From an uncultured bacterium (GTDB lineage Bacteria; Oederibacteriota; Oederibacteriia; Oederibacteriales; Oederibacteriaceae), in assembly GCA_965112635.1 (NCBI GenBank), contig OZ218778.1, forward strand, positions 2,624,001 through 2,688,000: a DNA stretch of 64,000 bases, given 5' to 3'. A program made the position numbers and the translations under genes. Shown here one piece after another: positions 1-36,450 of the stretch (its first letter is position 1; every line of letters starts with the position of its first letter). The notes under the pieces are model-generated. The model had not been told where the DNA came from and did not search any database. It saw nothing but the letters and a program-made list of their open reading frames with translations.

Positions 1-1165
1 CTAAAGCAAGCCCACCAAATATGTAATATATTTTCTTTCCTGTTACAAATGCTTTTAAGAAAAAATAAATCAAAAGGAGTTCAAAAAATATCAGATGCAG
101 ATCTAGAGTAAATCTAGAATAGTAAATATGCATTCGGTATGTTGCAAAAATAAGGGTTGCTAATAAAGCACTTCTAACACTCATAAGAATCTTTGCTATT
201 CTGAAAAAGATGAACACCGATAAGCACCCAAATATTAGATGCACAAGACGCAAACTAAACTCACTGGGCCCAAGAATCTTGATAAATAAAGCGTTGAAAC
301 ATAGTGGCAGCATAAACACATCACCCCAACCTGCCATAAACGGTGATTTTCCCCATCTTCCGTCGAAATTAATCGCAGGCCCTAAACCTGTAACAAGATA
401 ATTGATTTCCTGCCCCAAAATTGATTCGTCCGGAAACAATCCCCAAGGGAAAGAAGTAAATTTATAAATTCGGAACAAGACACCCACACTCAGGATAATG
501 GCCAGAAATATCTGTGTTTTTTTAGGGGAAAGATAATTATCAGGTGATTTCATTTGATTGGTATTTTTATTAAAGAAATACAAGAATATTAGGGCTAAAG
601 AAAATAGAGGTAATCCGTAGGGCAAGCTTCGCTTAAAGTCGTAACCCTTATAAATATAAAATTGACCCCAAAATCCTAAAACTAAAATGAAAATTATTAC
701 AGCAGGAATCATGCCTTTGCGACGCCAGGCCTGAGAAATTTGGGAATGCGACCGCGAATGGCCGAAATAATTGTTGGTAACTGCCTGACTTTTCCAGGGG
801 AATACCCACGAAAAACCGACTATACTTACGATATAACTAAGGACCCCAACCGCGGATATCCAAAAAACACTTAAATATCCTAACAACAAAAATAGGCAAC
901 AAATCAAAAACCAAAACCACTGTTCTTGAAATATATTTCGTTCGGTTCGCTGGAACAACAGATATTCTTTCTTTTGAAAAACAAAATAAACGGAACTAAT
1001 CAAGATTAGATAGGTTAATATAATTAAAGAAGGTTGGTTGGTGAACGAAAATAAAAGGTTCAGTACGATCGCGGCAATAGCTATAAAAACCCCGATTTGC
1101 CAGCCCATAACCGTGATGCTAAATCCGTTTCCCTTTCCAATCTTAACAATATTCTTGAAGTACAA
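1..1165 (-). CDS. GT-C fold glycosyltransferase (PMT_2/ArnT-like, family 39/83), 3'-truncated by window edge
   Basis: Not in the ORF track because it has no stop inside the window. Translated by hand from TTG at 1165 (AAAAGGA upstream); no stop seen in the stretches checked. Multi-TM protein with LFRIYKFTSFPWGLFPDES ... LGPSEFSLRL ... FELLLIYFFLKAFVTGKK, paralogous to the 1047-aa neighbour (FVRIYKLNTFPGGIYQDE ... FGVSEFVMRL ... FELMSFYFLWRGLETQKK). Confidence 0.8.
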   Translation of the reverse strand, partial: MYFKNIVKIGKGNGFSITVMGWQIGVFIAIAAIVLNLLFSFTNQPSLIILTYLILISSVYFVFQKKEYLLFQRTERNIFQEQWFWFLICCLFLLLGYLSVFWISAVGVLSYIVSIVGFSWVFPWKSQAVTNNYFGHSRSHSQISQAWRRKGMIPAVIIFILVLGFWGQFYIYKGYDFKRSLPYGLPLFSLALIFLYFFNKNTNQMKSPDNYLSPKKTQIFLAIILSVGVLFRIYKFTSFPWGLFPDESILGQEINYLVTGLGPAINFDGRWGKSPFMAGWGDVFMLPLCFNALFIKILGPSEFSLRLVHLIFGCLSVFIFFRIAKILMSVRSALLATLIFATYRMHIYYSRFTLDLHLIFFELLLIYFFLKAFVTGKKIYYIFGGLAL

Positions 1166-1185
1166 TGCTTTTCCTTTTGTGATCC

Positions 1186-4100
1186 CTAGTAGTATAGAAC
1201 CTCTGTTGGGACAGCTTCCTTTTGGGTTATATTAGGTGGACACCAGAATAAAGTAAGTCCAAGATAATCCATGTGTATATGAGATTTAATGTGAATAGAA
1301 TGAACGCCGGCATTTAAGAAAGTTGCCCCTTCCCTATAAGACCAATCCCTGCTATCCCCACCATTGTCGACAATTAACTTATTGTCTATATAAACCCAGT
1401 TGCCCTGATTGGAATTCGTTCCAAAAATATAACGACCGGATTTATCGATTTTAATTTTTCCGATCCATTCAACAGAAAAAGGAGGCCATAATATCGGCGG
1501 TAAAGGAGGCTGGGCGCTTGCGGTATTGTAAACTAAAGCAGGAACATTTTCTTCAGCAACAGGTTCTCCAGTCCAATCTTGGCTCTTGTAAAATATCGCC
1601 TTCAAACCATGAGGATACCACTCCTTTGTTAAATAATTCCTAATGATTGGCTCAAATTCCATCTTGGCACCTTGGAATTCTGGTTGTTTCCATTCTAAAA
1701 CAAAAGTTCCCTTCCGGTCTTCAGAACAGGTGATTTTTATCGCATGCCCTCCTCTCGCTAACAATACTTGTCCCTGGGGAATATCGTAAGCCATGCCCGC
1801 ATCATCGGTTTTTCTCATGACTATTTGTTTGTCATCTATCCACAAAGAGGCATGCGACGATCCCAGAAAACGAAAAACATGCACTCCATAGAACTTTGAG
1901 TAGAGGGCACCTTTCCAAACCACAGAAAAAGGCACTTGTATTTTCTGGACGCTCCAGTCGAATTTAAGGTCCTTATCAAGTTGCGTTTTAATCACTTTGC
2001 CGCTTAATTCCTGCCCTTGGTGGTAGGTTCCCATGAGACCTTGCAAAGAATCGACATCTTCCTTCTTAACTTGATAAATAAATCCCCTTAGACCATAGTC
2101 AAAAACTCCGGTCCGCTTAAAGGGATCAGGCAAAGCTTCATACTTTCCATTAGGGTAATAATGCCCCATCAAAGATTTAAGGGGTAAATAGGTGCTACGC
2201 AGAAAATAAACCGCATCCCTGTCCGGGGGGTCATGGACCGGCAAATTGTCAACCGGGTTAAACCAGGAAGGCTGGGTGTTCTTGTGATAACCAAGAAAGT
2301 TTACCGAGGGGTGGCTGAAGTAATCAACAGAAAGATAGGAGCGGCTGGAAGCCCCCAGCTGTGCAACACGTTGAGCTACCAAAGTCCGGTCTCCGGCAAA
2401 AAAATCATATGTGGACGAACTAATGGGTTGCTTGGCGTAATATCCAAAATAAGCTAAATAATTACCCGCGCAAAGTACAACAAAGAAAATAACGAGCAAG
2501 ATACCTATAAGTATTTTCCTTTTTGAAAAATGGACAAGCCACCTTTGTGCTCTTATGACAAACACATCAAGAAAAGCACCCATTAAAAGATATACCGCAG
2601 GTAGGCTGACTATCGCCCTTCTCTCGCACGGCGCTCCCCGAGCAAAAGCACAGGGGATAAGCCCAAGTAAAAACCACCAAAATATAAAATTATATTTTGG
2701 TTCAAACCACCTCGACAAACAGACCCCTAGGCCCAAAACAAAGAATATTCCTCCCAAAAAATCCAACTCCCGTATCCCTATAGGGTTGCTTAAAAGCTCT
2801 TCGTCCCCTCTCCAGTTGTACATAAGAATCGTTTTAGCCCAACTCCCCCAAACAGTAACTCTGCTGTCTTCTTTCATCTGACTGAACACAGTATAGGAGG
2901 ATATGTGGCCGCTGGCTGATCCCCAATGATTGAAAAGCCATAGCCCCATAGGCCCAAAAACCACGCCGCTTACAATTAAAAATAAAAAAACATTTTTTAC
3001 ATAAGTTCTCAAGAAAAGAGGATCGCTCAAGATCAAAAAAAGAAGGAACACGAGAGGAATGAAGGGGATGATCCTTCCAGCGTAATATCCATGCAGACTT
3101 AATGCAAGCGATATACCCGCCAAAACAAATGGAATTTTCTTTTGTGTTTCTAAACCCCTCCATAAAAAATAGAAAGACATCAACTCGAAAGTAACTATTG
3201 GCATGAAAATGGGGATCTTGCTGTTATGGAGATGGACACGAGAGGCTGTCAAAAAAGCCGTTACGGTCAAAGCCACCCAAGGGTGAAAGAACTTTTTAGC
3301 TATAAAATAAAAGAAGGGGATGCAGAGGAGCCCCATGATTATGGGAGGCAAGCGCATGACAAACTCGCTGACGCCAAATATTTTATAGAACAAAGCATCA
3401 AAGAAATATAATCCTAGGGGTATATCACCCCAACCTACCGTAATAGGAGTTGTATATTTTCCATCCAGGATGGCTAACTTGTCTAGGGCAGGCCAACATT
3501 CATCTTGATAGATTCCGCCCGGGAAAGTATTTAACTTATAAATCCTGACAAATGCCCCAAACACGATAAGAACAATCAATAAAATTCCTTCGACTTTGGG
3601 TGTTATGACACCTAGGCTCACCTCTGTGCGCAGCCTGTCCTTTTTCATAAGATTAAAAGAAGAAAAACCTACTAAGACCATGGCTACGAAAAAGAACACT
3701 ATTCCACCTTTTGGTAAGCTCTCCATTTTATCCAGGTCCACTAAATGTTGAGCAAAACAGGCTATAAGGATAGCAATCAATAGAGCAATATCCCTGGGAA
3801 AATCCATGGTTTTGGATATTGCATTGCCAGAATCAATATCGGCTTTAACGTAGTAACCACTGCTAGGAATGAATGACCTTGGATAGCCCCAAACAAATAA
3901 GATGAGACCTAAACCGCAGGTAGGGAAACCAAATAATATCTTTTCAGAAACTACAGCAAAAAATCCGATTATAGTTAATATTATCCCTAGTATTAACGAA
4001 AATATTTTGGCTTTTTGTAAAGCTGCAGCGCTATGGCCTTTTTCAACAATTTCTTTCGGGTGGTCCCCTTTTTGCTGCCCAAGGTTGCCGATAAACCTGG

Positions 4101-5423: not shown

Positions 5424-5474
5424 TATAATGCCTCCTGTTCTTTAGGATAAGTTGACCACCATCATAGCACTTTT

Positions 5475-7946: not shown

Positions 7947-8000
7947 AGTTTTTCTCCTTAAATCCCCTATATAAAATAAAAGGCAAAATATATTTATTAA

Positions 8001-8028
8001 ACTATAGCAAAAAAAACATTGAATGCAA
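8001..8028 (-). promoter_or_regulatory. Putative sigma70 promoter for the PorV-OmpA / NHL / GT genes
   Basis: Minus strand TTGCAT-N16-TATAGT with an extended -10 TG (TGcTATAGT), in the AT-rich intergenic region ~55 nt upstream of the ATT start. Confidence 0.5.
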
Positions 8029-8175: not shown

Positions 8176-11100
8176 TTATTTAATAATAACGACCTTCACC
8201 GCAGTTTTGAAGGTCGGCCCTGCCGCCAATGGCTGGGCCTCAACAGCTGCAATATAAACCCCTGAAGCCACTGCATTCACATCCCATGGCAAAACTTGGG
8301 TCCCCATCCCTCCCGGCGACCTCAAAGTAATGATCAAATTCCCTGCTAGATTATAGATATTGATCCTCAAACTCGCGCTTTGGCTCAGGTCAACCTTGAA
8401 ATATATGGTTTGAGTCCCCCCTGCCCTATAGGGATTAGGATAAGCTTTGGCTCCAAATGGGGCATTGGTCGAGGCTTGCAGTACCGTGACGCTCTTGGCA
8501 AAGGTTACTCTCCCCCCGTGATAGATTTGTTCAGCCTTAATGATAAATTCACCGTTCTGCACCATGTTACCCAAACCGGTGGTTCCGTCCCAGGTGATCC
8601 TGCTGGGTGTCAAACTTCCCCCGCTGTCGGAAAGATACAACCCGCTATCCCCCAAAGCCCCTATCCCCACGGTCCCATTCTGACTGCTACCGGCCAGAAG
8701 TAGGTTGCTGCTCAAAGCTATTCCCGTCAGCTCACCCGAAGTACTGTAGCCCTGGTAGATCACTTTGACCAATTCGCCCGACGGCGTATAAATGGAAATA
8801 CTGAGTTGGTTCCCCAGGCTCGTTACCGTAATACTGTTGAGGAAAACGGTAATGTTGCCGGACTGGTTGACTTCGGACTTCAAAATGTAGGTTCCAAGGG
8901 TAACAGCATTACCCAGGTCGTTAGTTCCATCCCAGCTCACATGCCACTGCCCCTTCTTGGTGGTTAAGATAATATCCAGAGGTACCCCCGAGTTCTCCAC
9001 AAAAGCTCCGCTACCGCCAAGGGTAATGGTAAGGTCGCTTAAATTGCCGAAAACCACTATCGTCCCTAGGGTTTTAACCAGCTCGCCATTATTGGCATAA
9101 ATTCTGAGATTGACACTGATGGCCGGAGGCGTAGGCGTAAAAGTGCCAGAGGAAGTCAGAGTATAGGTGACCGTAAGTGTGCGGGAGGATGTATTCGTGG
9201 GTAAAGGAGTGGTGGTACTGGTGGCCGTCGAGGTGGATGTACCCGTGGCGCTCTGGGTAAAGGTCACGGTCGCGGTTGCTGAATTGGTACTGGTTAAAGT
9301 TATCGTAGAGGTCGGCGAGGTGGTCCAAGTATAGGATTGGGTATTAGTGGGCAGTGGGGTACCCGTCTCGGTGGCTGTACAAGACGAAGTGGCCGTAGAA
9401 GTTTGAGTAAAAGTTATGGTCACGGTCCCAGTATCGGTGCCGGTTAAAGTCGCCGTTGCGGTAGGCGAGGTGGTCAAGGTATTGGACTGGGTATTGGTGG
9501 ATTGCGGGGTCGCCGTCTCGGTCGCCGTACAGGAAGAAGTGGCTGTGGCAGTCTGGGTGAAAGTGATTGACTCGGTGACAGTATTGGTAGCGGTCGCAGT
9601 ATTAGTGAAGGTATTGCTAATGGTAAGGGTATTGGACACTGTATCAGTAAAAGTTGCTGTTGCAGTGGAGGAGGCAGTAACAGTCTCGGTCCCTGTAGAG
9701 GATGGGGTAACGGTCATGCTGGCCGTGAGCGTGGGTGTTGCGGTCGGCGAGGTCGTGGGTGTACTGGTAGCTGTGCCCGTATTGGTGGCTGTTGGTGAAT
9801 CGGTGACCGTGGCCGTTTCGGTCCCCGTAATGGTAGCCGTGGCCGTAGAGGTTACGGAGATCGTATTGGTAGCGGTTGCGGTGACCGTAGCTGTGGACGT
9901 AGCTGTAGCTGTATTGGTAGCGGTAGCCGTAGGGCTGGTGGTAGCCGTGTAAGTGGCTGTGGCCGTTGCCGTGGCGGTTTGGGATTGAGTTAGCGTGCCG
10001 GTGGCTGTGCCCGTGTTACTGGCTGTGGACGTAGCGGTACCTGTGGCAGTGGTAGTAGCGGTAGCTGTGGAAGTAGCCGTACTGGACGGTGAAATCGTAT
10101 CGGTAAACGTGGCCGTGGCCGTAGCTGTGGATGTTGATGTGGCTGAATTGGTAACTGTACCGGTGGCACTGGCCGTGGACGTAGCTGTAGCCGTAGCTGT
10201 GATTGTAGCTGTGGGTGAAGTGGTGAACGTAGCCGTAGCCGTGGCCGTGCTGGTAGCCGTGGCTGTGACCGTGGCTGTGGCTGTGGTCGTGGCGGTCTGG
10301 GATTGGGTCAGCGTACTGGTGGCTGTGGCCGTACTACTGGCTGTGGACGTAATCGTAGCTGTGGCTGTGGTAGTAGCGGTACCTGTGGAAGTGCCCGTAC
10401 TGGTCGGCGAAATCGTATTGGTAAACGTGGCTGTGGCTGTGGACGTGGATGTTGATGTGGCTGAATTGGTAACTGTACTGGTGGCACTGATTGTGGACGT
10501 AGCTGTAGCTGTAGCCGTGATAGTAGCTGTGGGTGAAGTGGTGAACGTAGCTGTAGCCGTGGCCGTGCTCGTGGCCGTGGCTGTGACCGTAGCTGTGGCT
10601 GTGGTCGTGGCGGTCTGGGATTGGGTCAGCGTGCTAGTAGCTGTGCTGGTAGAACTGGCTGTGGACGTAATCGTAGCTGTGGCAGTGGTAGTAGCGGTAG
10701 CTGTGGAAGTGCCCGTACTGGTCGGCGAAATCGTATTGGTAAACGTGGCCGTGGACGTAGCTGTGGATGTTGATGTAGCTGAATTGGTGACCGTACCAGT
10801 GGCACTGGCCGTGGACGTAGCTGTAGCCGTAGCTGTGATTGTAGCTGTGGGTGAAGTGGTGAACGTAGCTGTATCCGTGGCTGTGTTGGTGGCCGTGGCT
10901 GTGACCGTAGCTGTGGCTGTGGTCGTGGCGGTCTGGGATTGGGTCAGCGTACTGGTGGCTGTGGCCGTACTACTGGCTGTGGACGTAATCGTAGCTGTGG
11001 CTGTGGTAGTAGCGGTACCTGTGGAAGTGCCCGTACTGGTCGGCGAAATCGTATTGGTAAACGTGGCTGTGGCTGTGGATGTGGATGTTGATGTGGCTGA

Positions 11101-14100: not shown

Positions 14101-14142
14101 GTTTGGCCCAAAAAATTTATTCACAGCATTCCCTTTTCTCAA
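8176..14142 (-). CDS. Large secreted Thr-rich surface protein: CBM11-like and two ConA/LamG-like head domains, (Thr-X)n stalk, three FlgD-Ig/T9SS-CTD-like domains
   Basis: 1988 aa, TTG start. Long basic n-region, then h-region VRLLLVLLIGFLMLPSIGWA. Cys/Trp-rich head, a ~900-aa T-X stalk, and a C-terminus AYPNPY...IYNLAGNLI...WD...VASGVYI...KVVIIK matching the type-A T9SS CTD pattern. Confidence 0.8.
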   Translation of the reverse strand: MRKGNAVNKFFGPNRNKGMPEDAVKKKTDNLKPIFHLHARATPKFRPVWVRLLLVLLIGFLMLPSIGWAYTDPNPMLDRMNGCSIHSDPCGYFCLPTGAVNIVKNSTYVYDTGNCNQSLEADFPATTGDDLQIKVEDITGVPQDWSCYTSVSVWMYTTSSSPVQYRIGLRDDNSNFTWSSSSTLTLPPTTWTQVTVQLQMLASPTGYDGFTNGILNPNNFSQIDCVEIECDTPSVSIFFNDLALTGSACTPTPTQTATSTITPTPTATPFTYSCVQFLADGKSSEVSGSTVNPQTGPPGTVMNSGSITYDPFEPAGSPTDGIDFAGSGPNCASWKWSSYPVQYLFNTCGGDIAFYIKSNYSWANAGNRGQSEYFDVTDNSGTELWTFNISSISSGGGWILFNYACDSTVFSDYVNGLNDSNFGLNVAAKVRLHWDGSNVYFYWNDQLIASHAYAPKAPSWGAGNLFNLGASANPFPQYHPAMDGIADFQITSAASCSCLVAVTNTSTPTVTPFNPPCVQMYIAGKSAEEPSGTANGNPVFPTKGYQGTVNLNAGGSVNFSPFENGTDGVWFGAGGQTGNSGWWSWSGPEIGNIFSTCGGDVTFYLKSNMSWAARQTWASAQWLGHAYEYVFEVSDNPSSCDSPFNFVIYTACSATCLEFTYAAAGGSGAYTVPAGTENTLFGNGVVLKVRMMWDGTNLYLYLNDVLVQTTLYTPFTPAWSGNSLFCFGATASMGCTEGFYSCFDSIADFQVSNGEGACPCAPTCTATFTLTATPSATATATTTATNTATATNSATQTATTNATSTATETSTATTTATATRTATATATASSTSTATSTLTQSQTATATASATSTATATATLTTSPTATATATATATFTASSTSTATSTLTQSQTATATATATSTATATATLTTSPTATATATATATSTASSTSTATSTLTQSQTATATATATSTATATATLTTSPTATATPTASSTNTATSTATATATFTTSPTATITATATATSTISATSTVTNSATSTSTSTATATFTNTISPTSTGTSTGTATTTATATITSTASSTATATSTLTQSQTATTTATATVTATATNTATDTATFTTSPTATITATATATSTASATGTVTNSATSTSTATSTATFTNTISPTSTGTSTATATTTATATITSTASSTSTATSTLTQSQTATTTATATVTATATSTATATATFTTSPTATITATATATSTISATSTVTNSATSTSTSTATATFTNTISPTSTGTSTGTATTTATATITSTASSTATATSTLTQSQTATTTATATVTATATSTATATATFTTSPTATITATATATSTASATGTVTNSATSTSTATATATFTDTISPSSTATSTATATTTATGTATSTASNTGTATGTLTQSQTATATATATYTATTSPTATATNTATATSTATVTATATNTISVTSTATATITGTETATVTDSPTATNTGTATSTPTTSPTATPTLTASMTVTPSSTGTETVTASSTATATFTDTVSNTLTISNTFTNTATATNTVTESITFTQTATATSSCTATETATPQSTNTQSNTLTTSPTATATLTGTDTGTVTITFTQTSTATSSCTATETGTPLPTNTQSYTWTTSPTSTITLTSTNSATATVTFTQSATGTSTSTATSTTTPLPTNTSSRTLTVTYTLTSSGTFTPTPPAISVNLRIYANNGELVKTLGTIVVFGNLSDLTITLGGSGAFVENSGVPLDIILTTKKGQWHVSWDGTNDLGNAVTLGTYILKSEVNQSGNITVFLNSITVTSLGNQLSISIYTPSGELVKVIYQGYSTSGELTGIALSSNLLLAGSSQNGTVGIGALGDSGLYLSDSGGSLTPSRITWDGTTGLGNMVQNGEFIIKAEQIYHGGRVTFAKSVTVLQASTNAPFGAKAYPNPYRAGGTQTIYFKVDLSQSASLRINIYNLAGNLIITLRSPGGMGTQVLPWDVNAVASGVYIAAVEAQPLAAGPTFKTAVKVVIIK
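9960..11215 (-). repeat. Four imperfect 318-bp (106-aa) intragenic repeats in ABAB arrangement
   Basis: The marker gattg(a/g)gt (LTQSQT) recurs at 9983, 10301, 10619 and 10937. Units alternate STISATSTVTNSA and STASATGTVTNSA. Confidence 0.8.
11240..11690 (-). repeat. Three imperfect 150-bp (50-aa) intragenic repeats
   Basis: The marker gactgggt recurs at 11321, 11471 and 11621 (ASSTSTATSTLTQSQT...LTTSPT). Confidence 0.75.
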
Positions 14143-27900: not shown

Positions 27901-30900
27901 GTCGATGTCGCCGTATTTGTATTGGTCGCCGTACTTGTGGCGCTCTGAGTGTTCGTAGCCGTGGCCGTGGCTGTCAACGTGATCGTATTGGTAGACGTAG
28001 ATGTGGCTGTATTGCTGTTCGTAGCCGTGGCTGTAGCCGTAGCTGTGCTCGTGGACGTGAATATAGACGTCGACGTCGCTGTCGTCGTGTTCGTCGCCGT
28101 AGCCGTCGCCGTGTTCGTCGGGCTCTGCGTGTAGGTATACGTGGATGTCGATGTCGCCGTATTTGTATTGGTCGCCGTACTTGTGGCGCTCTGAGTGTTC
28201 GTAGCCGTGGCCGTGGCTGTCAACGTGATCGTATTGGTAGACGTAGATGTGGCTGTATTGCTGTTCGTAGCCGTGGCTGTAGCCGTAGCTGTGCTCGTGG
28301 ACGTGAATATAGACGTCGACGTCGCTGTCGTCGTGTTCGTCGCCGTAGCCGTCGCCGTGTTCGTCGGGCTCTGCGTGTAGGTATACGTGGATGTCGATGT
28401 CGCCGTATTTGTATTGGTCGCCGTACTTGTGGCGCTCTGAGTGTTCGTAGCCGTGGCCGTGGCTGTCAACGTGATCGTATTGGTAGACGTAGATGTGGCT
28501 GTATTGCTGTTCGTAGCCGTGGCTGTAGCCGTAGCTGTGCTCGTGGACGTGAATATAGACGTCGACGTCGCTGTCGTCGTGTTCGTCGCCGTAGCCGTCG
28601 CCGTGTTCGTCGGGCTCTGCGTGTAGGTATACGTGGATGTCGATGTCGCCGTATTTGTATTGGTCGCCGTACTTGTGGCGCTCTGAGTGTTCGTAGCCGT
28701 GGCCGTGGCTGTCAACGTGATCGTATTGGTAGACGTAGATGTGGCTGTATTGCTGTTCGTAGCCGTGGCTGTAGCCGTAGCTGTGCTCGTGGACGTGAAT
28801 ATAGACGTCGACGTCGCTGTCGTCGTGTTCGTCGCCGTAGCCGTCGCCGTGTTCGTCGGGCTCTGCGTGTAGGTATACGTGGATGTCGATGTCGCCGTAT
28901 TTGTATTGGTCGCCGTACTTGTGGCGCTCTGAGTGTTCGTAGCCGTGGCCGTGGCTGTCAACGTGATCGTATTGGTAGACGTAGATGTGGCTGTATTGCT
29001 GTTCGTAGCCGTGGCTGTAGCCGTAGCTGTGCTCGTGGACGTGAATATAGACGTCGACGTCGCTGTCGTCGTGTTCGTCGCCGTAGCCGTCGCCGTGTTC
29101 GTCGGGCTCTGCGTGTAGGTATACGTGGATGTCGATGTCGCCGTATTTGTATTGGTCGCCGTACTTGTGGCGCTCTGAGTGTTCGTAGCCGTGGCCGTGG
29201 CTGTCAACGTGATCGTATTGGTAGACGTAGATGTGGCTGTATTGCTGTTCGTAGCCGTGGCTGTAGCCGTAGCTGTGCTCGTGGACGTGAATATAGACGT
29301 CGACGTCGCTGTCGTCGTGTTCGTCGCCGTAGCCGTCGCCGTGTTCGTCGGGCTCTGCGTGTAGGTATACGTGGATGTCGATGTCGCCGTATTTGTATTG
29401 GTCGCCGTACTTGTGGCGCTCTGAGTGTTCGTAGCCGTGGCCGTGGCTGTCAACGTGATCGTATTGGTAGACGTAGATGTGGCTGTATTGCTGTTCGTAG
29501 CCGTGGCTGTAGCCGTAGCTGTGCTCGTGGACGTGAATATAGACGTCGACGTCGCTGTCGTCGTGTTCGTCGCCGTAGCCGTCGCCGTGTTCGTCGGGCT
29601 CTGCGTGTAGGTATACGTGGATGTCGATGTCGCCGTATTTGTATTGGTCGCCGTACTTGTGGCGCTCTGAGTGTTCGTAGCCGTGGCCGTGGCTGTCAAC
29701 GTGATCGTATTGGTAGACGTAGATGTGGCTGTATTGCTGTTCGTAGCCGTGGCTGTAGCCGTAGCTGTGCTCGTGGACGTGAATATAGACGTCGACGTCG
29801 CTGTCGTCGTGTTCGTCGCCGTAGCCGTCGCCGTGTTCGTCGGGCTCTGCGTGTAGGTATACGTGGATGTCGATGTCGCCGTATTTGTATTGGTCGCCGT
29901 ACTTGTGGCGCTCTGAGTGTTCGTAGCCGTGGCCGTGGCTGTCAACGTGATCGTATTGGTAGACGTGGCTGTCGCCGTCGAAGTGGCTGTGGCTGTAATG
30001 CTCGCCGTGTTGCTGCTAGTAGCTGTGGCGGTCGCGGTAACTGTAATAGTCGCCGTGGCTGTCGCGGTAGCGGTGCTCGTATTCATGACCGTGGCCGTGG
30101 CTGTCGCGGTACTCGTATTGGTCGTTGTGCTTGTAGTAGTGGCAGAGGCAGTGCTTGTTGCAGTTCTCGTGGCCGTATTGGTCGCCGTAGCTGTGGCTGT
30201 ATTAGTGCCTGTATTCGTGGCCGTGGCCGTAGCCGTATTCGTGGAAGTGGGTGCAGCCGTGGCCGTGGAGGTCGGGGTTCTGGTAGAGGTCGCGGTATTG
30301 GTGGAGGTTGCCGTAGAAGTGGCTGTCCGGGTATTGGTAAAGGTATTCGTGCAGGTGGGAGCGCAGACGCATGAGCCTTCCCCGGTGCTGATCTGAAAAT
30401 CAGCGATGCTCTGCAGGCTGCTGCTCCAGTACCCTGGATAACCGGCTGCTATCGCCCCCAGGCAGAATAACGAACTACCACCCCAGCTTGCCGCCGTAGG
30501 GGTATAAGCTGTGGTTTGCACCAGGATGTCGTTAAAATATAGATAACAATTCGAGCCATCCCATCTTATCCTAACTTTCATAACAACCCCGTTTCCAATG
30601 TAATTATCCTCAGTTCCAGTGGGAACATAGTATGTACCACCAGCCCCGTCTATTCCGTAGCTAAACATTAAATTCCCATACAGCACGGTAAGTTGAAAAT
30701 TAAATAATGATCGAGAGCCATCATCAGAAACATCAAAGATCGTCTGTGCGGCTCCATGCGAAGTATCGTGATTGCCGAGATCTGCCACCCGGGCTTCATA
30801 ACTTTGCGAAGACTTTAGGTAAAAAGTTATATCCCCGCCGCAAGTATTAAAAATATTTCCTACTTCTGGCCCCGCCCAGCTCCACCAGGCAGAATTACTA

Positions 30901-33900
30901 TTTTGCCACCACCCATTTTGAAAATTCACGCCATCCGTTCCATTCTCAAAGGCATTGAAGTTTGCGGCACCGCTTCCCGTGATATTTTCAGTGCCTTGAT
31001 ACCCTTTGGTCGGAAATATCGGATTGCCATTTCCACTCCCACTGGGCAATTCCGCGCTCTTCCCCGCGATATACATCTGCACGCAGGAGGTATTAAAGGC
31101 CGTGGGCGTGACCGTAGGTGTGGAGGTGGTGCAATTCATGACCTGCACGTCAAAGGAAACTGTGGAAACCTGCGCGTTGCCATAACCGTTGGTCTCGTAC
31201 AGGTCAAACAGGAGATTTTTGAAAGACGCGGCGGTCCATCCTCCGGACGGCGGCTGCAGGATCACGCTATCGGTCTGCTGGGTGTTATTGAGGTCCAGGA
31301 ACCGCTGGTCCACATAGTCATCCGTGGCGCTGCCGCTGGTGCCCCATCCGAACTGGAAGACCGCGACATAATCGCTGTCCTGCCAGGTAACGTGCGCGGT
31401 GACATTGCCAAAAGAAGAATAGTTGGTGACCGGCGTGGTCACATACCACCATCCGGATTGGTTGCCTCCGACAACGGCGGTCGCGGAACCGTTGAGGATA
31501 GGCGTGGCATTGGGCTTGTTACCATTACCCGTTGACCACCATACGCCTCCCCAAGTGTTCCCAAGGAGCGTAAAGGTCGTGCAGGGTGTGGGCTCGGAAC
31601 AGGAGGTCAACAGGTTGACCGTAAACCAGACATGGTCAACCTCCATCCCGTGGGTATTGTTGGGATTGTTGATATCGTACCTCAATGCGTTTATCTGCGC
31701 CTCGGTCCATCCAGATGGCTGCGGCCGGGCCAGGGTGATATTATCTGTCTGCCAGGTATTGTCCGCGAGGGCCGCCAAAGGCTCTTCAACCGTCCCGTTC
31801 GTGGAGCCGTCCACGTTGTAGTCAAAGTAACCTCCCCAACCGGCATTGGCATCTTGCCACTTGATATGGGCGACTACATCCTGGATATTGGCCTGGGTGT
31901 AGGTCCCGCGCAAGGGAATGGTATAGTACCAGCCTGACCCGGTGCCCACCAATTGCATGAACAGTCCCCCATCCGCCTCAGCTCCATCCGTGGCGTTTGG
32001 CTGATTCGAGGAAGTGGCGCTGGACCAGCCTGAGCCTCCATAGCTCCCGGATTGCACGGTCGCTGTGCACGCAACAGTGGGTTCACTGCAGGCTGTATTC
32101 AAGGTGACCACCAAATACATGTAGTCCACGGTTATGTTAAAGTTGTAATACCCCCCGCTCAGACCCGCCCGTATCTGGTTCACCTCGGCCTCTGTCCATC
32201 CGCCGGAGGGCACTGCCAACTGCATACTGTCGGTCTGATAAACACTGCTCCCGGCAGCGGTAAAAGTCGCGGTGGTAGCGGTCCCGGCGTTGGTGGTGCC
32301 GTCAGAGGTGGCGGCAGCATACATATAATTTCCGGCAGTGGCTGCCTCCCATTTGACATATAAGGTCACAGAGGTGATAGACCCGCCGGAGTAAGTACCC
32401 ATCATATTCTCCATAAACCACCAACCGTTATTGCCGCCAAGAGGCACGGTCAAACCATCCCCTGTTGCCCCCAGGCCCGTAGAACTGTTTGGTGCAGACG
32501 AACTCCAACCAAACCCGCCCGTGCCTCCGTACTGCGTCGCGGGCAATGTCAGGGAACAAGCAGGCGTGGGGGTGGGAGTACAGCCGGTTGTGGACAGGCA
32601 GAGGTAATTGTAGGTTACAGTTTCCAGGGTATTATTATGGGAACACACGGCCAGGCCCCAATAGACTGTGGGGTTCATCGTAACAGTGGTCGAACCCAAC
32701 AGTGTCCATGAATTCCCGTCCGAAGAATAATAGCTGGTAAATGTACTCCCGCTCCTCACCAGTTTTAACCAATAGGGCGCCGCGGGTCCCCCATGCCACC
32801 CCACGTCAGAAGAAGCCCCGCCCGCAGTACCCCTCCAGGCGAAATCAACCCCGGACGAATAACCCATTTGCAAACTAACGTTTGCGGCGCCAGCGGTGAG
32901 GTCATTGCGTATCATGAGACACGCTTTAGCATACCCATCACCATCGTTGCTCATGCTAGGGACCAACACCGTCATAGTTCCGTCGCCGCACATAGAGGCG
33001 TAATCAAAGTTGAATGAGTCAGCAGTGCCCCAGATATCCGACCCGCCGCCGTTGACCGTGTAGGTGGGAGCGGAATAACTCGCGCTCCCAGCCTGGCTTG
33101 GGCCGCCGATGTCCAGGTCAGTCAGGGCTGGGGTCGAGCTGCAAGGCGTAGGTGTGGGAGTCGATGTGCTTGCGGGTGTGTATGTGTTTGTGGCTGTGTT
33201 TGTGAATGTGCAGGAAACACCGTTGAGTTGCAGGTCATTGAGCAGAATGGTCGCGTTGTTTGTATAGCACTCAATGGCAAACTTTCTGATGTAGTGGAAG
33301 TCCAGGTCTCCGGCCTCAAAAATGCCGTTCTGAAATCCATTACTGCCGTTGGGATTGGCCTGCCACTGCAGTTGGATGGTCTCCTGGGTCCAGGAGGTCG
33401 GTGCGGTCAGTCCAGAGGAAGAATAATTGTAAGTGTCGTTGCCCCAGTCGTCTTCTATCAGAACACGGTATTGCACCCCTGAAGTGGTCGCACACATCCA
33501 AAAAGAAATGGAAGTGTAGCAATCCCAATTCATGCATGGCCAGCCTCCATCCAGAAGATTGACATCACCGCCGTTTGGCTCACTGCTTCCAAAATCCATC
33601 TCCAAAGAATTACAACAGTCATTGTAACTGCTGGAGTTTTTTGTGAAAGTTACGCTCTGCTGCGCCCCACCTCCCCCAAAAGAAAAATATCCGCAGGAAT
33701 CGTTGTGAATACCCCCACCAGTCATCGCGTCGATCATGTAGGACTGAGCTAATCCAAGGGTTGGCATCATCAACACGAACAACAACAGGGCAACAATTAC
33801 ATAACGCCGATTTGTTCCTTCAAAATGTTTTTGGGACCTGGCCTTCTGATGACCATCATATCCAGCAGACATTGGGAAAGTACTTTTTGGGCAGAATGGA

Positions 33901-34178
33901 AAAAGGGGTTGGAAAAATATTAACCTTTTTAATAGTCCAAAATTTGAAAAGAGAAAGATTTGGCTCTGCCATATATATAACAAAGCCTTTTCATTGTTCA
34001 AAAAAAAGGCAAAACTTTTTCTAATGATGGCGAACGATGAATTTAGGAAATAATGGGCGAGAACTTCAAAAAAAAGTTGCGACTTTGTCTTTAGTTGCGC
34101 AGGGAAACTCAATTTTATTTTTTTTCTCTTCACACAATTGACCATCATCACCGGTATGCCCCTTGTTCCTGATATCAT
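15993..34178 (-). CDS. Giant (6061 aa) Thr-rich secreted surface protein/adhesin with C-terminal FlgD-Ig/T9SS-CTD-like domain
   Basis: One uninterrupted 18.2-kb ORF. Order: h-region YVIVALLLFVLMMPTLGLA; CBM11-like domain; DUF1349/ConA-like domain (DIWGTADSFNF...PYWLKLVRSGSTFTSYYSSDG); three small Trp-rich domains; LamG-like domain; ~4,100-aa (T-X)n stalk; second DUF1349-like domain; short stalk; carboxypeptidase-regulatory-like domain (GLVYDAQTGQPIPGALV); CTD-like end (IYNLSGDILV...WNGRN...VANDIYLV...KKIAVIR). Start uncertain: 34178, or GTG 34151 after AAGGGG. Confidence 0.8.
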   Translation of the reverse strand: MISGTRGIPVMMVNCVKRKKIKLSFPAQLKTKSQLFFEVLAHYFLNSSFAIIRKSFAFFLNNEKALLYIWQSQIFLFSNFGLLKRLIFFQPLFPFCPKSTFPMSAGYDGHQKARSQKHFEGTNRRYVIVALLLFVLMMPTLGLAQSYMIDAMTGGGIHNDSCGYFSFGGGGAQQSVTFTKNSSSYNDCCNSLEMDFGSSEPNGGDVNLLDGGWPCMNWDCYTSISFWMCATTSGVQYRVLIEDDWGNDTYNYSSSGLTAPTSWTQETIQLQWQANPNGSNGFQNGIFEAGDLDFHYIRKFAIECYTNNATILLNDLQLNGVSCTFTNTATNTYTPASTSTPTPTPCSSTPALTDLDIGGPSQAGSASYSAPTYTVNGGGSDIWGTADSFNFDYASMCGDGTMTVLVPSMSNDGDGYAKACLMIRNDLTAGAANVSLQMGYSSGVDFAWRGTAGGASSDVGWHGGPAAPYWLKLVRSGSTFTSYYSSDGNSWTLLGSTTVTMNPTVYWGLAVCSHNNTLETVTYNYLCLSTTGCTPTPTPACSLTLPATQYGGTGGFGWSSSAPNSSTGLGATGDGLTVPLGGNNGWWFMENMMGTYSGGSITSVTLYVKWEAATAGNYMYAAATSDGTTNAGTATTATFTAAGSSVYQTDSMQLAVPSGGWTEAEVNQIRAGLSGGYYNFNITVDYMYLVVTLNTACSEPTVACTATVQSGSYGGSGWSSATSSNQPNATDGAEADGGLFMQLVGTGSGWYYTIPLRGTYTQANIQDVVAHIKWQDANAGWGGYFDYNVDGSTNGTVEEPLAALADNTWQTDNITLARPQPSGWTEAQINALRYDINNPNNTHGMEVDHVWFTVNLLTSCSEPTPCTTFTLLGNTWGGVWWSTGNGNKPNATPILNGSATAVVGGNQSGWWYVTTPVTNYSSFGNVTAHVTWQDSDYVAVFQFGWGTSGSATDDYVDQRFLDLNNTQQTDSVILQPPSGGWTAASFKNLLFDLYETNGYGNAQVSTVSFDVQVMNCTTSTPTVTPTAFNTSCVQMYIAGKSAELPSGSGNGNPIFPTKGYQGTENITGSGAANFNAFENGTDGVNFQNGWWQNSNSAWWSWAGPEVGNIFNTCGGDITFYLKSSQSYEARVADLGNHDTSHGAAQTIFDVSDDGSRSLFNFQLTVLYGNLMFSYGIDGAGGTYYVPTGTEDNYIGNGVVMKVRIRWDGSNCYLYFNDILVQTTAYTPTAASWGGSSLFCLGAIAAGYPGYWSSSLQSIADFQISTGEGSCVCAPTCTNTFTNTRTATSTATSTNTATSTRTPTSTATAAPTSTNTATATATNTGTNTATATATNTATRTATSTASATTTSTTTNTSTATATATVMNTSTATATATATITVTATATATSSNTASITATATSTATATSTNTITLTATATATNTQSATSTATNTNTATSTSTYTYTQSPTNTATATATNTTTATSTSIFTSTSTATATATATNSNTATSTSTNTITLTATATATNTQSATSTATNTNTATSTSTYTYTQSPTNTATATATNTTTATSTSIFTSTSTATATATATNSNTATSTSTNTITLTATATATNTQSATSTATNTNTATSTSTYTYTQSPTNTATATATNTTTATSTSIFTSTSTATATATATNSNTATSTSTNTITLTATATATNTQSATSTATNTNTATSTSTYTYTQSPTNTATATATNTTTATSTSIFTSTSTATATATATNSNTATSTSTNTITLTATATATNTQSATSTATNTNTATSTSTYTYTQSPTNTATATATNTTTATSTSIFTSTSTATATATATNSNTATSTSTNTITLTATATATNTQSATSTATNTNTATSTSTYTYTQSPTNTATATATNTTTATSTSIFTSTSTATATATATNSNTATSTSTNTITLTATATATNTQSATSTATNTNTATSTSTYTYTQSPTNTATATATNTTTATSTSIFTSTSTATATATATNSNTATSTSTNTITLTATATATNTQSATSTATNTNTATSTSTYTYTQSPTNTATATATNTTTATSTSIFTSTSTATATATATNSNTATSTSTNTITLTATATATNTQSATSTATNTNTATSTSTYTYTQSPTNTATATATNTTTATSTSIFTSTSTATATATATNSNTATSTSTNTITLTATATATNTQSATSTATNTNTATSTSTYTYTQSPTNTATATATNTTTATSTSIFTSTSTATATATATNSNTATSTSTNTITLTATATATNTQSATSTATNTNTATSTSTYTYTQSPTNTATATATNTTTATSTSIFTSTSTATATATATNSNTATSTSTNTITLTATATATNTQSATSTATNTNTATSTSTYTYTQSPTNTATATATNTTTATSTSIFTSTSTATATATATNSNTATSTSTNTITLTATATATNTQSATSTATNTNTATSTSTYTYTQSPTNTATATATNTTTATSTSIFTSTNTATATATNTNTNTSTATATNTNTSSATATSTSTQTATSTATNTTTSTATSTTTMSITSTATATATASATATATATATATNTNTASATATTTNTYTQSATNTATATATSTATATATAIFTSTNTATATATNTNTNTATSTATNTNTATATATSTSTRTATSTATATATNTTTATSTSIFTSTNTATATATNTNTNTSTATATNTNTSSATATSTSTQTATSTATNTTTSTATSTTTMSMTATATSTATNTNTATATATATATNTNTASATATTTNTYTQSATNTATATATSTATATATAIFTSTNTATATATNTNTNTATSTATNTNTATATATSTSTRTATSTATATATNTTTATSTSIFTSTNTATATATNTNTQSATNTATATATSTATATATAIFTSTNTATATATNTNTNTATATATNTNTATATATSTSTRTATSTATNTATATATATNTLSMTATATATATATASATATVTATATNTNTATSTATSTTTMSMTATATATATATASATATATATATNTNTATATATTTNTNSQTATNTATATATSTATATATAIFTSTNTATATATNTNTNTSTATATNTNTATATATSTSTRTATSTATNTATATATATNTLSMTATATATATATASATATATATATNTNTATSTATSTTTMSMTATATATATATASATATATATATNTNTATATATTTNTNSQTATNTATATATSTATATATAIFTSTNTATATATNTNTNTATVTATNTNTATATATSTSTRTATSTATATATATATATATASATATATATTTTTLSNTATATATATATNTATATATATATNTNTATATTTTTNTNTQTATSTATATATATATTTTTMSMTATATATATATASATATTTATATNTNTATATATTTNTNTQTATNTATATATATATATATATSTTTMSMTATATASATATATNTNTRTATSTATATATATATSTTTLSNTATATATATATASATATATATATNTNTATATATTTNTYTQTATNTATASATATATATATATATTTMSNTATATATATATNTATATATATATNTNTATATATTTNTNTRTATSTATATATATATSTTTMSNTATATATATATATATATATATATNTNTATATATTTNTYTQTATNTATATATATATATATSTTTTTMSNTATATATATATASATATSTATATSTATATATATSTTTMSMTATATATATATATATATATATATNTNTATATATTTNTNTRTATSTATASATATATSTTTMSNTATATATATATASATATATATATNTNTASATATTTNTNTQTATNTATATATATATATTTMSNTATATATATATASATATSTATATSTATATATATTTTTMSNTATATATATATATATATNTNTATATATTTNTNTQTATSTATATATATATSTTTMSNTATATATATATNTATATATATATNTNTATATATTTNTNTQTATNTATASATATATATATATATTTMSNTATATATATATNTATATATATATNTNTATATATTTNTNTRTATSTATATATATATSTTTMSNTATATATATATATATATATATATNTNTATATATTTNTNTQTATNTATATATATATATATSTSTTTMSNTATATATATATATATATATATATNTNTATATATTTNTNTQTATNTATATATATATATASSTSTTTMSNTATATATATATATATATATATATNTNTATATATTTNTNTQTATNTATASATATATATATSTSTTTMSNTATATATATATATATATATATATNTNTATATATTTNTNTQTATNTATASATATATATATSTSTTTMSNTATATATATATNTATATATATATNTNTATATATTTNTNTQTATNTATFTATSTATATTTMSNTATATATATATNTATATATATATNTNTATATATTTNTNTQTATNTATATATATATATATATSTATLSNTATASATATATATATATATATATNTNTATATATTTNTNTQTATNTATFTATSTATATTTMSNTATATATATATATATATATATATNTNTATATATTTNTNTQTATNTATFTATSTATATNTLSNTATATATATATATNTATATATATNTNTATATATTTNTNTQTATNTATASATATATATNTLSNTATATATTTATNTATATTTATATNTNTATATATTTNTNTQTATNTATATATATATATATATATVTASNTSTATATATATNTYTQTATATATATATATATATNTATATNTLSNTSTATATATATNTATATATATATNSNTNTSTATATNTDTQTATNTATATATATATTTATATTTMTNTATATATATATATATATTTTTATNTNTSTATTTATNTDTQTATNTTTATASATATATATLTSTNTATVTATATATATATTTATATNTNTETATATVTNTNTQTATNTATATATSTASATATTTATDTLSNTATTTATATATTTATATATATATNTNTATATGTTTNTATQTATDTTTGTATNTATQTATNTTTATSTATATNTATATVTSTGTNTETGTMTNTATATATATTTATATATATATATATNTTTATATTTATYTMSNTATATATATATTTATATTTATATSTNTATTTATTTNTDTQTATDTTTDTATNTGTQTATNTATASATATASATATTTATDTLSNTASATATATATATATATATATATNTNTATATATTTNTDTETATNTATCTATNTATATMTGTTTNTATSTGTATNTDTQTATATATATTTATTTNTETATATATPTSTPTMSLTYTSTATSTATQTATATTTATATSTDTSTATATATNTDTQTATDTTTGTATNTATVTTTATSTNTSTNTATNTSTSTETMTVTMTSTATATGTATETQTASATATSTATPSSTSTATETMTATVTATSTSTATVTETATSTATSTITNTNTETATATDTDTVTLTVTATATSTTTMTATETATITLTVTASMTGTITDTPTCALTWACTWQDQDIGNVGLTGTADNYCQQFAVTGAGGDIGGNADAFNFESQIMTGDGQIIAEVTGIAPAKVGVMMRESLDAGAPNAYMALYQGGVGGSKDVFQYRMAENAGTFQSSTPATPPYWVKLTRMGNVFTGYLSTDGSNWVMVGSPQTIAMGISLYVGLAVDSGNVNALSTGTFDNVSILGLSCGTATSTATSTATETMTATGTATATTTATTTATESPTGTATATATATGTATVTATATATATATATSTATSTATVTMSMTYTATATSTNTATVTATATKTATATSTSTNTLSMTVTATSTNTRTNTATATATRTATATSTVTATVTLINSHTNTSTATATYTATATATSSRTFTATATGTVTTTSTQSGTVTLTATITLTPTVSPTFTQTTTATETATQTATMTATTTMNPSFTVTSSTTSTGTATITQTMTVTPTPQFSVLTGLVYDAQTGQPIPGALVQLEDGSQTYADSTGHYTFGQVTPGNHTVTGSKTGYLPTSIPVFVPPLTIVTQDIPLNENPGGDQLFLDKNRLFTQGGQLNIRVFLESPSQTSLNIYNLSGDILVVNLMDGMFNGGWTYTKWNGRNNFNDEVANDIYLVVLKTSRKLIIKKIAVIRGAKQ
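17870..26818 (-). repeat. Degenerate (Thr-X)n coding repeat region with nested ~200-bp and ~546-bp units
   Basis: Plus strand is runs of gtN-gcN hexamers. The ttcgacatcgt marker recurs at ~204-bp spacing near 21340-22160. A ~546-bp duplication lies at ~25740/26290, and a near-identical ~270-bp block occurs at both ~22147 and ~23521. Confidence 0.8.
26819..29966 (-). repeat. About 12.8 apparently identical 246-bp tandem repeats encoding an 82-aa Thr-rich unit
   Basis: Antisense ORF starts recur at exactly 246-bp spacing (26965 to 29917). Unit: NTITLTATATATNTQSATSTATNTNTATSTSTYTYTQSPTNTATATATNTTTATSTSIFTSTSTATATATATNSNTATSTST. Confidence 0.95.
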
Positions 34179-35808: not shown

Positions 35809-36395
35809 AGGAACGATTTTAGGTTTTTCTGCAGGATGCCACGTCCCCTGGCGATCCTTGATTTCACTGTCCCTTCACTGATACGCAATATTTTCGCTAT
35901 CTCTTCGTATGACAGTCCATCTATCTCTCTGAGGACCAAGGCCATCCTTTTGTCCTCTTCTAAACCCATGAGAGCGCTCTGGATAGCCTGCATCAGCTCT
36001 CTTTTTTCCGCGTCTTGCTCTGAGTTCTCCTTGGCCGCCACCTCTTCGATAAAGGACTTTCCGTCCTCATTCACAGGATTTGAGGTGATGACCCTTTTCT
36101 GCAAAGCTCTCTGTTTGAACTTGTTCTTGACCAGATTGACCGCTATCCTGTAGAGCCAGGTGAATAAATTCGAGTCACCCCTAAAATTCTTTATAGACTG
36201 GTAACCATTTATAAAAACTTCCTGGCAGATATCTTGGCTTTCGTTCACATCACCAAAGAAATACAGGATCGAGTTAAAGATCCGCTGGTGATATTTGTTA
36301 AAGAGCTCGTCAAAAGCCTCTCTGTCCCCTTCTTTGCATCTTTGGATCAGTTTCCATTCAGCGGCGTCTTTATACACTTTTTTTTTGCCAAACAT
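35805..36395 (-). CDS. ECF RNA polymerase sigma-70 factor (RpoE/SigW-like)
   Basis: 196 aa; GDREAFDELFNKY, region 2 FRGDSNLFTWLYRIAVN, region 4 LREIDGLSYEEIAKILRISEGTVKSRIARGR. Confidence 0.95.
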   Translation of the reverse strand: MFGKKKVYKDAAEWKLIQRCKEGDREAFDELFNKYHQRIFNSILYFFGDVNESQDICQEVFINGYQSIKNFRGDSNLFTWLYRIAVNLVKNKFKQRALQKRVITSNPVNEDGKSFIEEVAAKENSEQDAEKRELMQAIQSALMGLEEDKRMALVLREIDGLSYEEIAKILRISEGTVKSRIARGRGILQKNLKSFL

Positions 36396-36422
36396 AAACC
36401 GTCCTAACGCTCTTCCGATTGA

Positions 36423-36450
36423 TTAGACAACTCACCCACTAAAAAGTTCC
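36423..36450 (-). promoter_or_regulatory. RpoE-type ECF promoter (probably autoregulatory)
   Basis: Minus strand GGAACTT-tttagtgggtgagtt-GTCTAA, matching the sigmaE consensus GGAACTT-N15-GTC(T/A)AA, 27 nt upstream of the sigma ATG. Confidence 0.75.

Follow-up and report, generated by a model that had tools for sequence, protein, structure and literature searches.

Do nine genes that stand side by side and point the same way form a single machine? The question is raised by a locus on the minus strand of a 64,000-nucleotide stretch of DNA (hereafter, the window; contig OZ218778.1, positions 2,624,001 to 2,688,000, assembly GCA_965112635.1) from an uncultured bacterium of the Oederibacteriota. 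Its nine co-oriented open reading frames (ORFs) code for an extracytoplasmic function (ECF) sigma factor, an anti-sigma factor ending in a C-terminal domain (CTD) of the kind that tags cargo in type IX secretion systems (T9SS), two giant proteins with (Thr-X)n stalks, two barrels of the PorV family, an NHL propeller, and two GT-C membrane glycosyltransferases. A first-pass annotation had reported these genes with their domains and had taken them for one new system; all nine ORFs were recovered at the same positions, and the profile searches agree with the domain assignments (Table 1).

The explanation that we favor, with a confidence slightly better than even, is that the locus is a composite of three modules rather than one nine-gene machine, in which the anti-sigma CTD would act as a sensor and the giants would be anchored by barrels. 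The first module consists of the ECF sigma factor and a zf-HC2 anti-sigma factor with a T9SS type-A-like CTD, the second of two cargo/barrel pairs, and the third of the NHL protein and the two GT-C/PA14 proteins. The idea of a single system survives in part: the sigma factor, the CTD-tagged anti-sigma factor, the PorV barrel, and the Thr-X cargo are linked and kept together in relatives, whereas the GT-C genes are adjacent only. The genome is a single contig of 2.88 Mb, its nearest relatives are found only at the phylum level (among 98 other species representatives), and its position outside the Bacteroidota, previously suspected from the core genes, is borne out.

A conserved sigma/anti-sigma/PorV cassette

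The window pair has the makeup of an ECF sigma/zf-HC2 couple, i.e., sigma regions 2 and 4 and an adjoining anti-sigma factor with the HxxxCxxC motif (zf-HC2, 28.4 bits; cut-off 22.2) and one membrane helix (residues ~96–115). A low-complexity linker of ~140 residues separates the helix from the CTD (residues ~256–346), which passes both TIGR04183 (32.6 bits; cut-off 23) and FlgD_ig (29.7 bits; cut-off 27). Moreover, the two best TIGR04183 matches of the whole genome are two anti-sigma tails (36.6 and 37.6 bits).

The cassette was traced from the PorV loci and from the locus of the best sigma homologue in each of 29 relatives. Its core, made up of a PorV barrel, an ECF sigma factor, and an anti-sigma-CTD protein, followed in five loci by a Thr-X CTD protein, occurs in 10 or more relatives from this phylum. 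In eight of the 29 relatives, the sigma gene is directly followed by an ORF of 320–365 aa with HxxxCxxC and a CTD, and all eight loci, once extended, have a PorV gene directly upstream of sigma. Two further relatives (L024 and L027) show the order sigma, anti-sigma-CTD, PorV; altogether, the PorV gene adjoins the sigma/anti-sigma pair in 10 out of 10 relatives' cassettes. Five of the eight loci have Thr-X runs in the gene that comes next downstream: four of these genes are ORFs of 1300–1767 aa with 206–314 residues in Thr-X runs and a CTD tail, and the fifth runs off the contig end, its tail lying beyond the sequence. The other three loci have no flagged ORF or too little downstream sequence. 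According to these data, the association of sigma factor, CTD-tagged anti-sigma factor, PorV barrel, and Thr-X cargo noticed in the window is conserved in relatives.

The alignment of 12 anti-sigma proteins (alignment A1) revealed that H34, C38, and C41, as well as the CTD motifs, are invariant, and that the proteins all have a membrane helix and a CTD that is well conserved, joined by a variable linker. The 11 records with anti-sigma relatives bear the titles Candidatus Goldiibacteriota/Goldbacteria (four), uncultured Spirochaetia (three), Methylomirabilis (one), a "bacterium" (one), and Bacteroidota (two, for the tag part only). A sequence search for anti-sigma relatives retrieved only the protein itself and one short CTD protein; probing the phylum with the N-terminal 130 residues retrieved other anti-sigma families, with 11 relatives' loci lacking a CTD.

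A second locus of the same genome harbors sigma, anti-sigma-CTD, two CTD cargos, and PorV, and its PorV is the best own-genome match of nine out of ten cassette PorVs. The second locus is therefore the orthologue of the relatives' cassettes, and the window contains a paralogue that has been enlarged, its cargos being two giants and both of its barrels being extended. No description of the anti-sigma-CTD/PorV cassette or of the Thr-X giants was found in the literature, with supplementary gene lists outside the scope of the search; the accessible text of an in-depth Goldbacteria paper has nothing on secretion (PMC7031533).

The sigma gene is preceded by an ECF-type promoter motif. In the genome, GGAAC-N16-18-GTCTAA has 21 matches (e.g., at 1240965, 2058454, and 2468804) versus one for the reversed control. 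CTD-tailed proteins are encoded by 12 of the 20 ORFs downstream of the motif, against a background of 77 out of 3365 ORFs of at least 150 aa; one of the 20 is the window sigma gene, and no other sigma gene of the genome has the motif. ECF sigma factors usually drive their own promoter. This norm, together with the motif lying 5' of the sigma gene, suggests that the window sigma factor probably controls genes for tagged surface proteins scattered over the genome in addition to its own operon. In relatives, no match to the motif was seen ahead of the cassette sigma genes. As for the motif-associated CTD genes themselves, a PorV gene comes next in only three cases out of 12.

Thr-X giants and their barrels

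Both giants have signal-like N-termini, concanavalin/LamG-like heads, and stalks whose lengths run from hundreds to thousands of residues; the likely start of giant B is at 33872, ahead of a signal-peptide-like segment. Its N-terminal heads are LamG-like and DUF1349-like, and they are followed by a (Thr-X)n region in which Thr accounts for 2187 out of 4605 residues (residues 1275–5879) and which is broken by one DUF1349-like domain. In giant A, the main Thr-X array lies at ~9385–11265 and the CTD at ~8179–8469. The C-termini had been read as CTD-like, and this holds for both proteins by different routes: the tail of giant A passes TIGR04183 (28.7 bits; cut-off 23), whereas that of giant B matched no public CTD model and is recognized only by an in-house CTD hidden Markov model (HMM) built from 26 CTD tails of the same genome, giant B's own excluded (37.7 bits, E 1.8e-13).

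The heads of the two giants are paralogous, and head-like sequence occurs at 18 places in the genome; they had no match in 60 relatives, so the orthology of the giants cannot be traced. The structural model of the giant A head is confident for residues ~460–700 (pLDDT ~90), and for this part Foldseek ranks laminin LG, neurexin LNS, galectin, and CBM22 highest (E 6e-10 to 1e-6). With its binding heads distal, its anchor tag proximal, and a long stalk in between, this layout is consistent with a stalked adhesin.

The Thr-X bias of these proteins is extreme and goes beyond chance. A 246-nt unit in the giant B stalk is present in 13.3 copies with 98% identity (26687–29966), a sign of recent expansion, and all 14 distinct tandem-repeat periods are multiples of six bases, which implies that the duplications preserve the dipeptide register. 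At the genome level, a (T-x)20 DNA pattern gave 1457 matches versus none for the reversed control, and besides three Thr-X giants the genome encodes about 20 proteins whose Thr-X linkers are shorter. Runs of (T-x)20 occur in 81 of the 99 phylum genomes, with controls near zero in most, and the Thr-X stalks represent an uncharacterized protein material. Near-identical units such as the 246-nt ones are hard to assemble, and the giant ORFs might therefore be suspected of being assembly or annotation artefacts. We regard this as highly improbable: the 18-kb frame is open throughout, its signal-like, head, stalk, and CTD parts come in the right order, the genome is a single contig, and the runs recur across the phylum.

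A different view of the same arrays is that they fold into beta-solenoid or S-layer-like fibers with Thr ladders on one face, forming a surface coat rather than adhesins. A period of two suits beta-strands, the register is kept in every repeat period, and the C-terminal region matches the anammox S-layer glycoprotein model weakly and partially (45.9 bits; cut-off 1400). Furthermore, a 300-residue Thr-X stretch was modelled five times with AlphaFold, and the best model is all-beta; its mean pLDDT, however, is 58, and that of the other four is 24–30. Considering also that the array lengths vary widely between paralogues and that lectin-like heads opposite an anchor suit a stalked adhesin, we find the surface coat doubtful, although of the alternatives weighed here it is the one that we take most seriously.

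Some further observations concern Thr-X proteins elsewhere. The 18 genomes of five families (f3, f4, f11, f14, and f16) have no (T-x)20 run, while the remaining 80 relatives all do; the same families are nevertheless rich in first-look PorV candidates, whose numbers (10–64 across all 99 genomes) are a rough proxy and are not taken as counts. The third Thr-X giant (a 4518-aa ORF with 48% Thr; genome positions 1840224–1854229) has its CTD in a separate 131-aa ORF just before a PorV gene, and the split between stalk and tag could be a frame break or a stop. The largest cargo of the genome is an 8355-aa ORF with a CTD tail (29362–54426), which is also followed by a PorV gene.

The two barrels of the locus had been called PorV-like, as the family model and the profile match to solved PorV both bear out. 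The 580-aa protein passes PorV_fam (NF033709, 129.4 bits; cut-off 90) and carries TPR repeats in addition. The fused barrel scores 62.6 bits as the 767-aa ATG-started ORF, below that cut-off, 86.8 bits in the genome search, and 90.4 bits with its neighbors in frame; the 767-aa protein further matches OmpA (71.5 bits), FlgD_ig below the cut-off (18.8 bits), and a right-handed beta-helix (42.1 bits) missing from the earlier domain list. The PorV and PorQ equivalog models (68 and 69 bits) stay under their cut-offs of 250 and 220, respectively. A profile of 29 such barrels retrieves solved PorV (6h3i_F, E 2.1e-38) as the best relative in the PDB.

The listed ATG of the fused-barrel gene (7778) falls inside the barrel, and the 120 open codons upstream of it (7779–8175), which contain no ATG, GTG, or TTG, encode a signal peptide. 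The start codon is probably an ATT near 7946, seven bases past AAGGAG and ahead of the signal peptide, as judged from the sequence.

The pairing of a cargo with its own barrel extends well beyond this locus. The genome has 37 PorV-family matches, corresponding to 35 PorV genes, and its CTDs amount to 41 TIGR04183 matches or 77 CTD-tailed ORFs by the in-house HMM; a same-strand CTD-tailed ORF ends within 1 kb upstream of 21 of the 35 PorV genes. In five relatives, with 17–39 PorV-family matches each, the cargo-then-barrel order was found in 12 out of 20 PorV loci (the four best-scoring per genome). Since this order is a genome-wide rule, one-cargo barrels are no specialty of the window locus.

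Table 1. Features of the locus, in window coordinates.
Feature	Position	Strand	Basis and remarks
ECF-type promoter motif GGAAC-N17-GTCTAA	36423..36450	-	Motif scan; ~27 nt 5' of the sigma start codon
ECF sigma factor, 196 aa	35805..36395	-	Sigma70_r2, Sigma70_r4_2, Sigma70_ECF; TIGR02937 108 bits (cut-off 42.9)
Anti-sigma factor, 346 aa	34768..35808	-	zf-HC2, one membrane helix, linker, T9SS type-A-like CTD
Giant cargo B, 6061-aa ORF	15993..34178	-	Heads, (Thr-X)n stalk, CarboxypepD_reg domain, divergent CTD
(Thr-X)n region of giant B, residues 1275-5879	16542..30356	-	Residue counts, tandem-repeat analysis
PorV/PorQ-family barrel + C-terminal TPR, 580 aa	14225..15967	-	NF033709; begins 25 nt past giant B
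Giant cargo A, 1988-aa ORF	8176..14142	-	Heads paralogous to those of B, (Thr-X)n stalk, FlgD-Ig-like repeats, type-A CTD
PorV-family barrel + FlgD-Ig-like + OmpA peptidoglycan-binding + right-handed beta-helix	5475..7946	-	Listed 767-aa ORF spans 5475-7778
NHL beta-propeller, N-terminal membrane anchor, 332 aa	4425..5423	-	NHL 88.5 bits; first gene of the separable NHL + GT-C module
GT-C (PMT_2) membrane glycosyltransferase, 1047 aa	1186..4329	-	~14 hydrophobic segments, C-terminal PA14
Second GT-C (PMT_2), cut by window edge	2..1165	-	991 aa in the genome; PA14-like end

Upstream of the sigma gene (36460–43233) lie ordinary core genes: PGA_cap (CapA-like), an AsmA/DUF748 protein, recA, and a penicillin-binding transpeptidase with N-terminal TPR repeats; there is no PorV barrel among them.

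The NHL/GT-C module and the question of glycosylation

The two GT-C proteins match PMT_2 (46.7 and 41.9 bits; cut-off 26.1), and the 1047-aa one also PA14 (76 bits). The sole NCBIfam match is to an Agl23-like model, below its cut-off, and phmmer retrieved no solved relative of the GT-C proteins. Among solved structures, the PA14 end of the 1047-aa protein (1186–2049) is closest to the PA14 sensor domain carried by RsgI3, a clostridial anti-sigma factor (6qe7, E 6e-11).

In principle, all nine genes could form one system, in which the GT-C/PA14 pair O-glycosylates the Thr-X stalks in the periplasm before CTD/PorV export, a diderm counterpart of the serine-rich repeat (SRR) loci. All of them point the same way, and gaps of only 51, 95, and 20 nt separate the barrel gene from NHL, NHL from the first GT-C, and the first GT-C from the second; moreover, the carbohydrate-binding-type PA14 following the last membrane segment suggests that the glycan-transferring side would face the periplasm. 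Precedents exist as well: in Tannerella, periplasmic O-glycosylation of T9SS cargo is described (PMC4175972, PMC8550257, in the portions available), and in streptococci, according to the accessible part of the source, GT-C enzymes glycosylate extracytoplasmic Ser/Thr-rich regions from Und-P-sugars (PMC12041528). Moreover, PMT_2 genes (28 in this genome and 11–29 per genome in the phylum) and Thr-X runs are both abundant. These precedents make glycosylation of the stalks plausible by analogy; apart from adjacency in this one locus, nothing found here links it to the two neighboring GT-Cs.

The distribution of GT-C genes, however, does not point to such a tie. A PMT_2 gene lies within 10 kb of a PorV gene in six cases out of 28, with 5.96 expected (circular shifts, p = 0.52), and in 15 out of 91 in five relatives, with 15.8 expected; the 11 cassette loci inspected showed no GT-C, and there is none within 70 kb of the 4518-aa Thr-X giant. 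NHL + GT-C pairs occur at 1.111 Mb and 2.169 Mb, without giants or adjoining barrels, and an NHL paralogue also adjoins a GT-C/DUF2298 set at 2.60 Mb. Three of eight NHL matches lie within 3 kb of a PMT_2 match, versus 0.42 expected. The recurrence of such pairs without giants suggests that NHL + GT-C/PA14 is a recurring unit of its own.

Beyond the window edge are found GT9, a Mur ligase, a PorV-TPR barrel, UbiA, a 1502-aa PMT_2/DUF2298 protein, and GT2. Within genome positions 2604100–2624000, the UbiA prenyltransferase, the 1502-aa protein, and GT2 are flanked by a membrane protein and three NHL paralogues, and the PorV-TPR barrel of this region (520 aa) stands alone, without an upstream CTD gene. 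To judge from its gene content, this region looks like a polyprenyl-phosphate-sugar envelope-glycan module, and its UbiA/GT2/GT-C/NHL set, 12–24 kb away, argues against the nine-gene system, as does the fact that the acceptor of a PMT_2-family enzyme is not readable from sequence. We therefore consider a single nine-gene glycosylation and export system unlikely. As there is no enrichment of GT-C genes near PorV, the data lend no support to dedicated glycosylation, and neither the view of the GT-Cs as a dedicated part nor that of the locus as a threonine counterpart of SRR loci, both put forward in the first-pass annotation, can be kept beyond a likeness of form. This null result guards against taking the glyco-adhesin analogy as fact.

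Export, signalling and comparison with known systems

The composite reading, with modules one and two at its center, requires a route to the surface. Elsewhere in the genome, a 1846-aa protein passes TIGR04189 (SprA/Sov, 244 bits; cut-off 200) in five collinear stretches. Components of the T9SS were sought in five phylum genomes (the window genome and four relatives), with two Bacteroidota genomes as positive controls. SprA-like ORFs, reported at 1851–2177 aa, occur in all five, whereas GldM and GldL were found in both controls and in none of the five; the same holds for full PorU, only the CTD end of its model (~970–1095) matching in the window genome. Near the SprA-like gene (~123 kb; L014:15049-17217), an Agl23-like GT-C gene (TIGR03663, 277 bits; cut-off 126) lies ~2.5 kb away on the opposite strand, and on the other side are RNase R and a PilW-like TPR protein.

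From gene content, domains, and cassette conservation we infer the following steps of binding, export, and signalling. Sec would take the giants across the inner membrane, and the distant SprA-like translocon across the outer one. Neither a GldLM motor nor a PorU sortase having been found, the CTD is probably retained and would remain bound to the dedicated barrel, which would serve as the anchor in the way that type-B CTD cargo is held by PorP/SprF barrels in Bacteroidota; the periplasmic extensions of the barrels (TPR; Ig-OmpA-beta-helix) would tie them to the periplasm and the cell wall. The anti-sigma linker could span the periplasm, and the anti-sigma CTD would engage a PorV-type barrel (or the translocon), reporting export or anchor occupancy to the sigma factor. 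The latter, auto-regulated, would in turn drive its own operon and the dispersed CTD-protein genes.

A more specific version, offered tentatively and with less confidence than the composite as such, is that of a motor-less relative of the T9SS, in which the anti-sigma factor is tethered to an outer-membrane PorV-type barrel by a secretion tag that sits on a linker across the periplasm, and in which cargo occupancy of the barrels or of the translocon is read directly as ECF sigma activity, setting a dispersed tagged regulon that includes the kilobase-long Thr-stalk adhesins. If true, this would be a new kind of cell-surface signalling, with the cargo-recognition step of a secretion system as the sensor.

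Alternatively, the anti-sigma CTD could be a generic Ig-like periplasmic sensor of an ordinary envelope-stress sigma factor, with no physical link to PorV or to secretion. FlgD-Ig/CTD-like folds are common beta-sandwiches, the window sigma factor resembles RpoE/SigW-type factors, the anti-sigma CTDs are a conserved family of their own, apart from cargo CTDs, and the predicted complex discussed below supports a contact only weakly. Nevertheless, the rank of both anti-sigma tails at the top of the genome's TIGR04183 matches, the PorV gene beside the pair in every relative's cassette, and the share of CTD proteins among the motif-associated genes all argue for a link to secretion, and a generic sensor seems to us improbable.

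Several points weigh against the composite reading and its sensing step. The motif has no match upstream of either giant, so what would place the giants under the sigma factor is only their co-orientation, and scans for sigma-70 promoters and terminators gave results at the chance level. The window locus has no PorV gene directly upstream of sigma. The anti-sigma CTDs resemble each other across genomes and not the CTDs of their own cargo: by similarity to the anti-sigma CTD, the window giants rank 22 and 27 out of 74, and the cassette cargos 45–61 out of 61–67. The predicted complex between the anti-sigma CTD and the 580-aa protein's barrel has only a weak score, 0.56 (0.00 for the best of three controls); at least 80% of contacts are shared between its runs, and the partner pLDDT is 79 or more. 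The mark applied is reached by 58 of 80 solved complexes and two of 110 mismatched pairs; with scores up to 0.60, seven of the 80 solved complexes reach it, as do both passing mismatches. Moreover, PorV-cargo complexes have already been solved, and the pass may therefore stem from likeness. As regards export, the SprA-like protein is very distant from its model, with stretches of 23–105 bits where the Bacteroidota controls give ~2600 bits. GldK had no match in the window genome in a search that was not repeated with the Bacteroidota controls, and GldN was not searched for; PorP/SprF (PF11751) had no match in the genome in a search with no positive control. Hence, of the parts absent from the window for which a genome-wide check had been proposed (sprA, gldKLMN, and porU), a distant SprA-like protein is what was recovered.

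The idea that the anti-sigma factor carries a copy of its own cargo's tag was considered separately and rejected on the similarity ranks; a model of competition for the same site by the same tag is, in turn, without sequence support.

The closest known system is the T9SS of Bacteroidota: as there, CTDs pass TIGR04183, barrels pass the PorV/PorQ family model, and the SprA-like protein passes TIGR04189. Unlike there, no GldL, GldM, or PorU was found in the five phylum genomes, nor GldK in this one, and there are ~35 PorV-family genes rather than a few, most of them paired with one cargo, with barrels fused to TPR or OmpA modules. If the reading is right, T9SS-type sorting (CTD, PorV, SprA) would operate in a candidate phylum without the GldLM motor or the PorU sortase, which bears on the minimal system and on its power source.

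The SprB-SprF pair, as far as the available text describes it (PMC9143113), is similar in that a giant adhesin gene is followed by the gene of its own surface-holding barrel. Here, however, the barrel belongs to the PorV/PorQ family (with no PF11751 match, in the search without a positive control noted above) and the tag is type-A-like. The barrel extensions resemble the PorE domain set, according to the portions available (PMC5053529, PMC7192894). If true, giving each cargo a barrel tied to the cell wall would provide diderm envelopes with a general means of holding very long fibrils.

With the SRR glycoproteins of Gram-positive cocci and GtrB/PgtC2, as outlined in the accessible sections (PMC12041528), the giants share a period-2 hydroxy-amino-acid stalk between a binding head and a cell anchor. 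They differ in having Thr instead of Ser, in the diderm setting, and in a CTD with a barrel in place of a sortase anchor, their C-termini not being LPXTG; furthermore, no conserved link to a glycosyltransferase gene was found here.

For the signalling part, two systems offer themselves. In Porphyromonas gingivalis, the available text reports that the PorA CTD binds PorV and feeds the PorXY-SigP pathway (PMC7712824); there, as would be the case here if the predicted binding occurs, a PorV-binding CTD informs an ECF sigma factor controlling secretion-related genes. In the present cassette, by contrast, the CTD is fused to the anti-sigma factor itself and there is no two-component system, so that the wiring would be direct. 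Dma anti-sigma factors are described, in the sections accessible, as spanning both membranes (PMC10927553), and in Dma/FecR, as presumed here, control of an ECF sigma factor is exerted by an anti-sigma factor that extends from the inner membrane as far as a barrel in the outer one. In Dma the barrel domain is part of the protein itself, and in FecR the contact is with a TonB-dependent transducer, whereas the anti-sigma factor of this locus ends in a CTD of ~90 residues rather than an outer-membrane beta-barrel domain, and a separate PorV-type barrel together with the secretion tag would make the contact. An anti-sigma factor ending in a secretion tag offers a model for matching the synthesis of surface proteins to export capacity. 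As a whole, the system builds on two kinds that are already known, T9SS-type sorting and ECF signalling.

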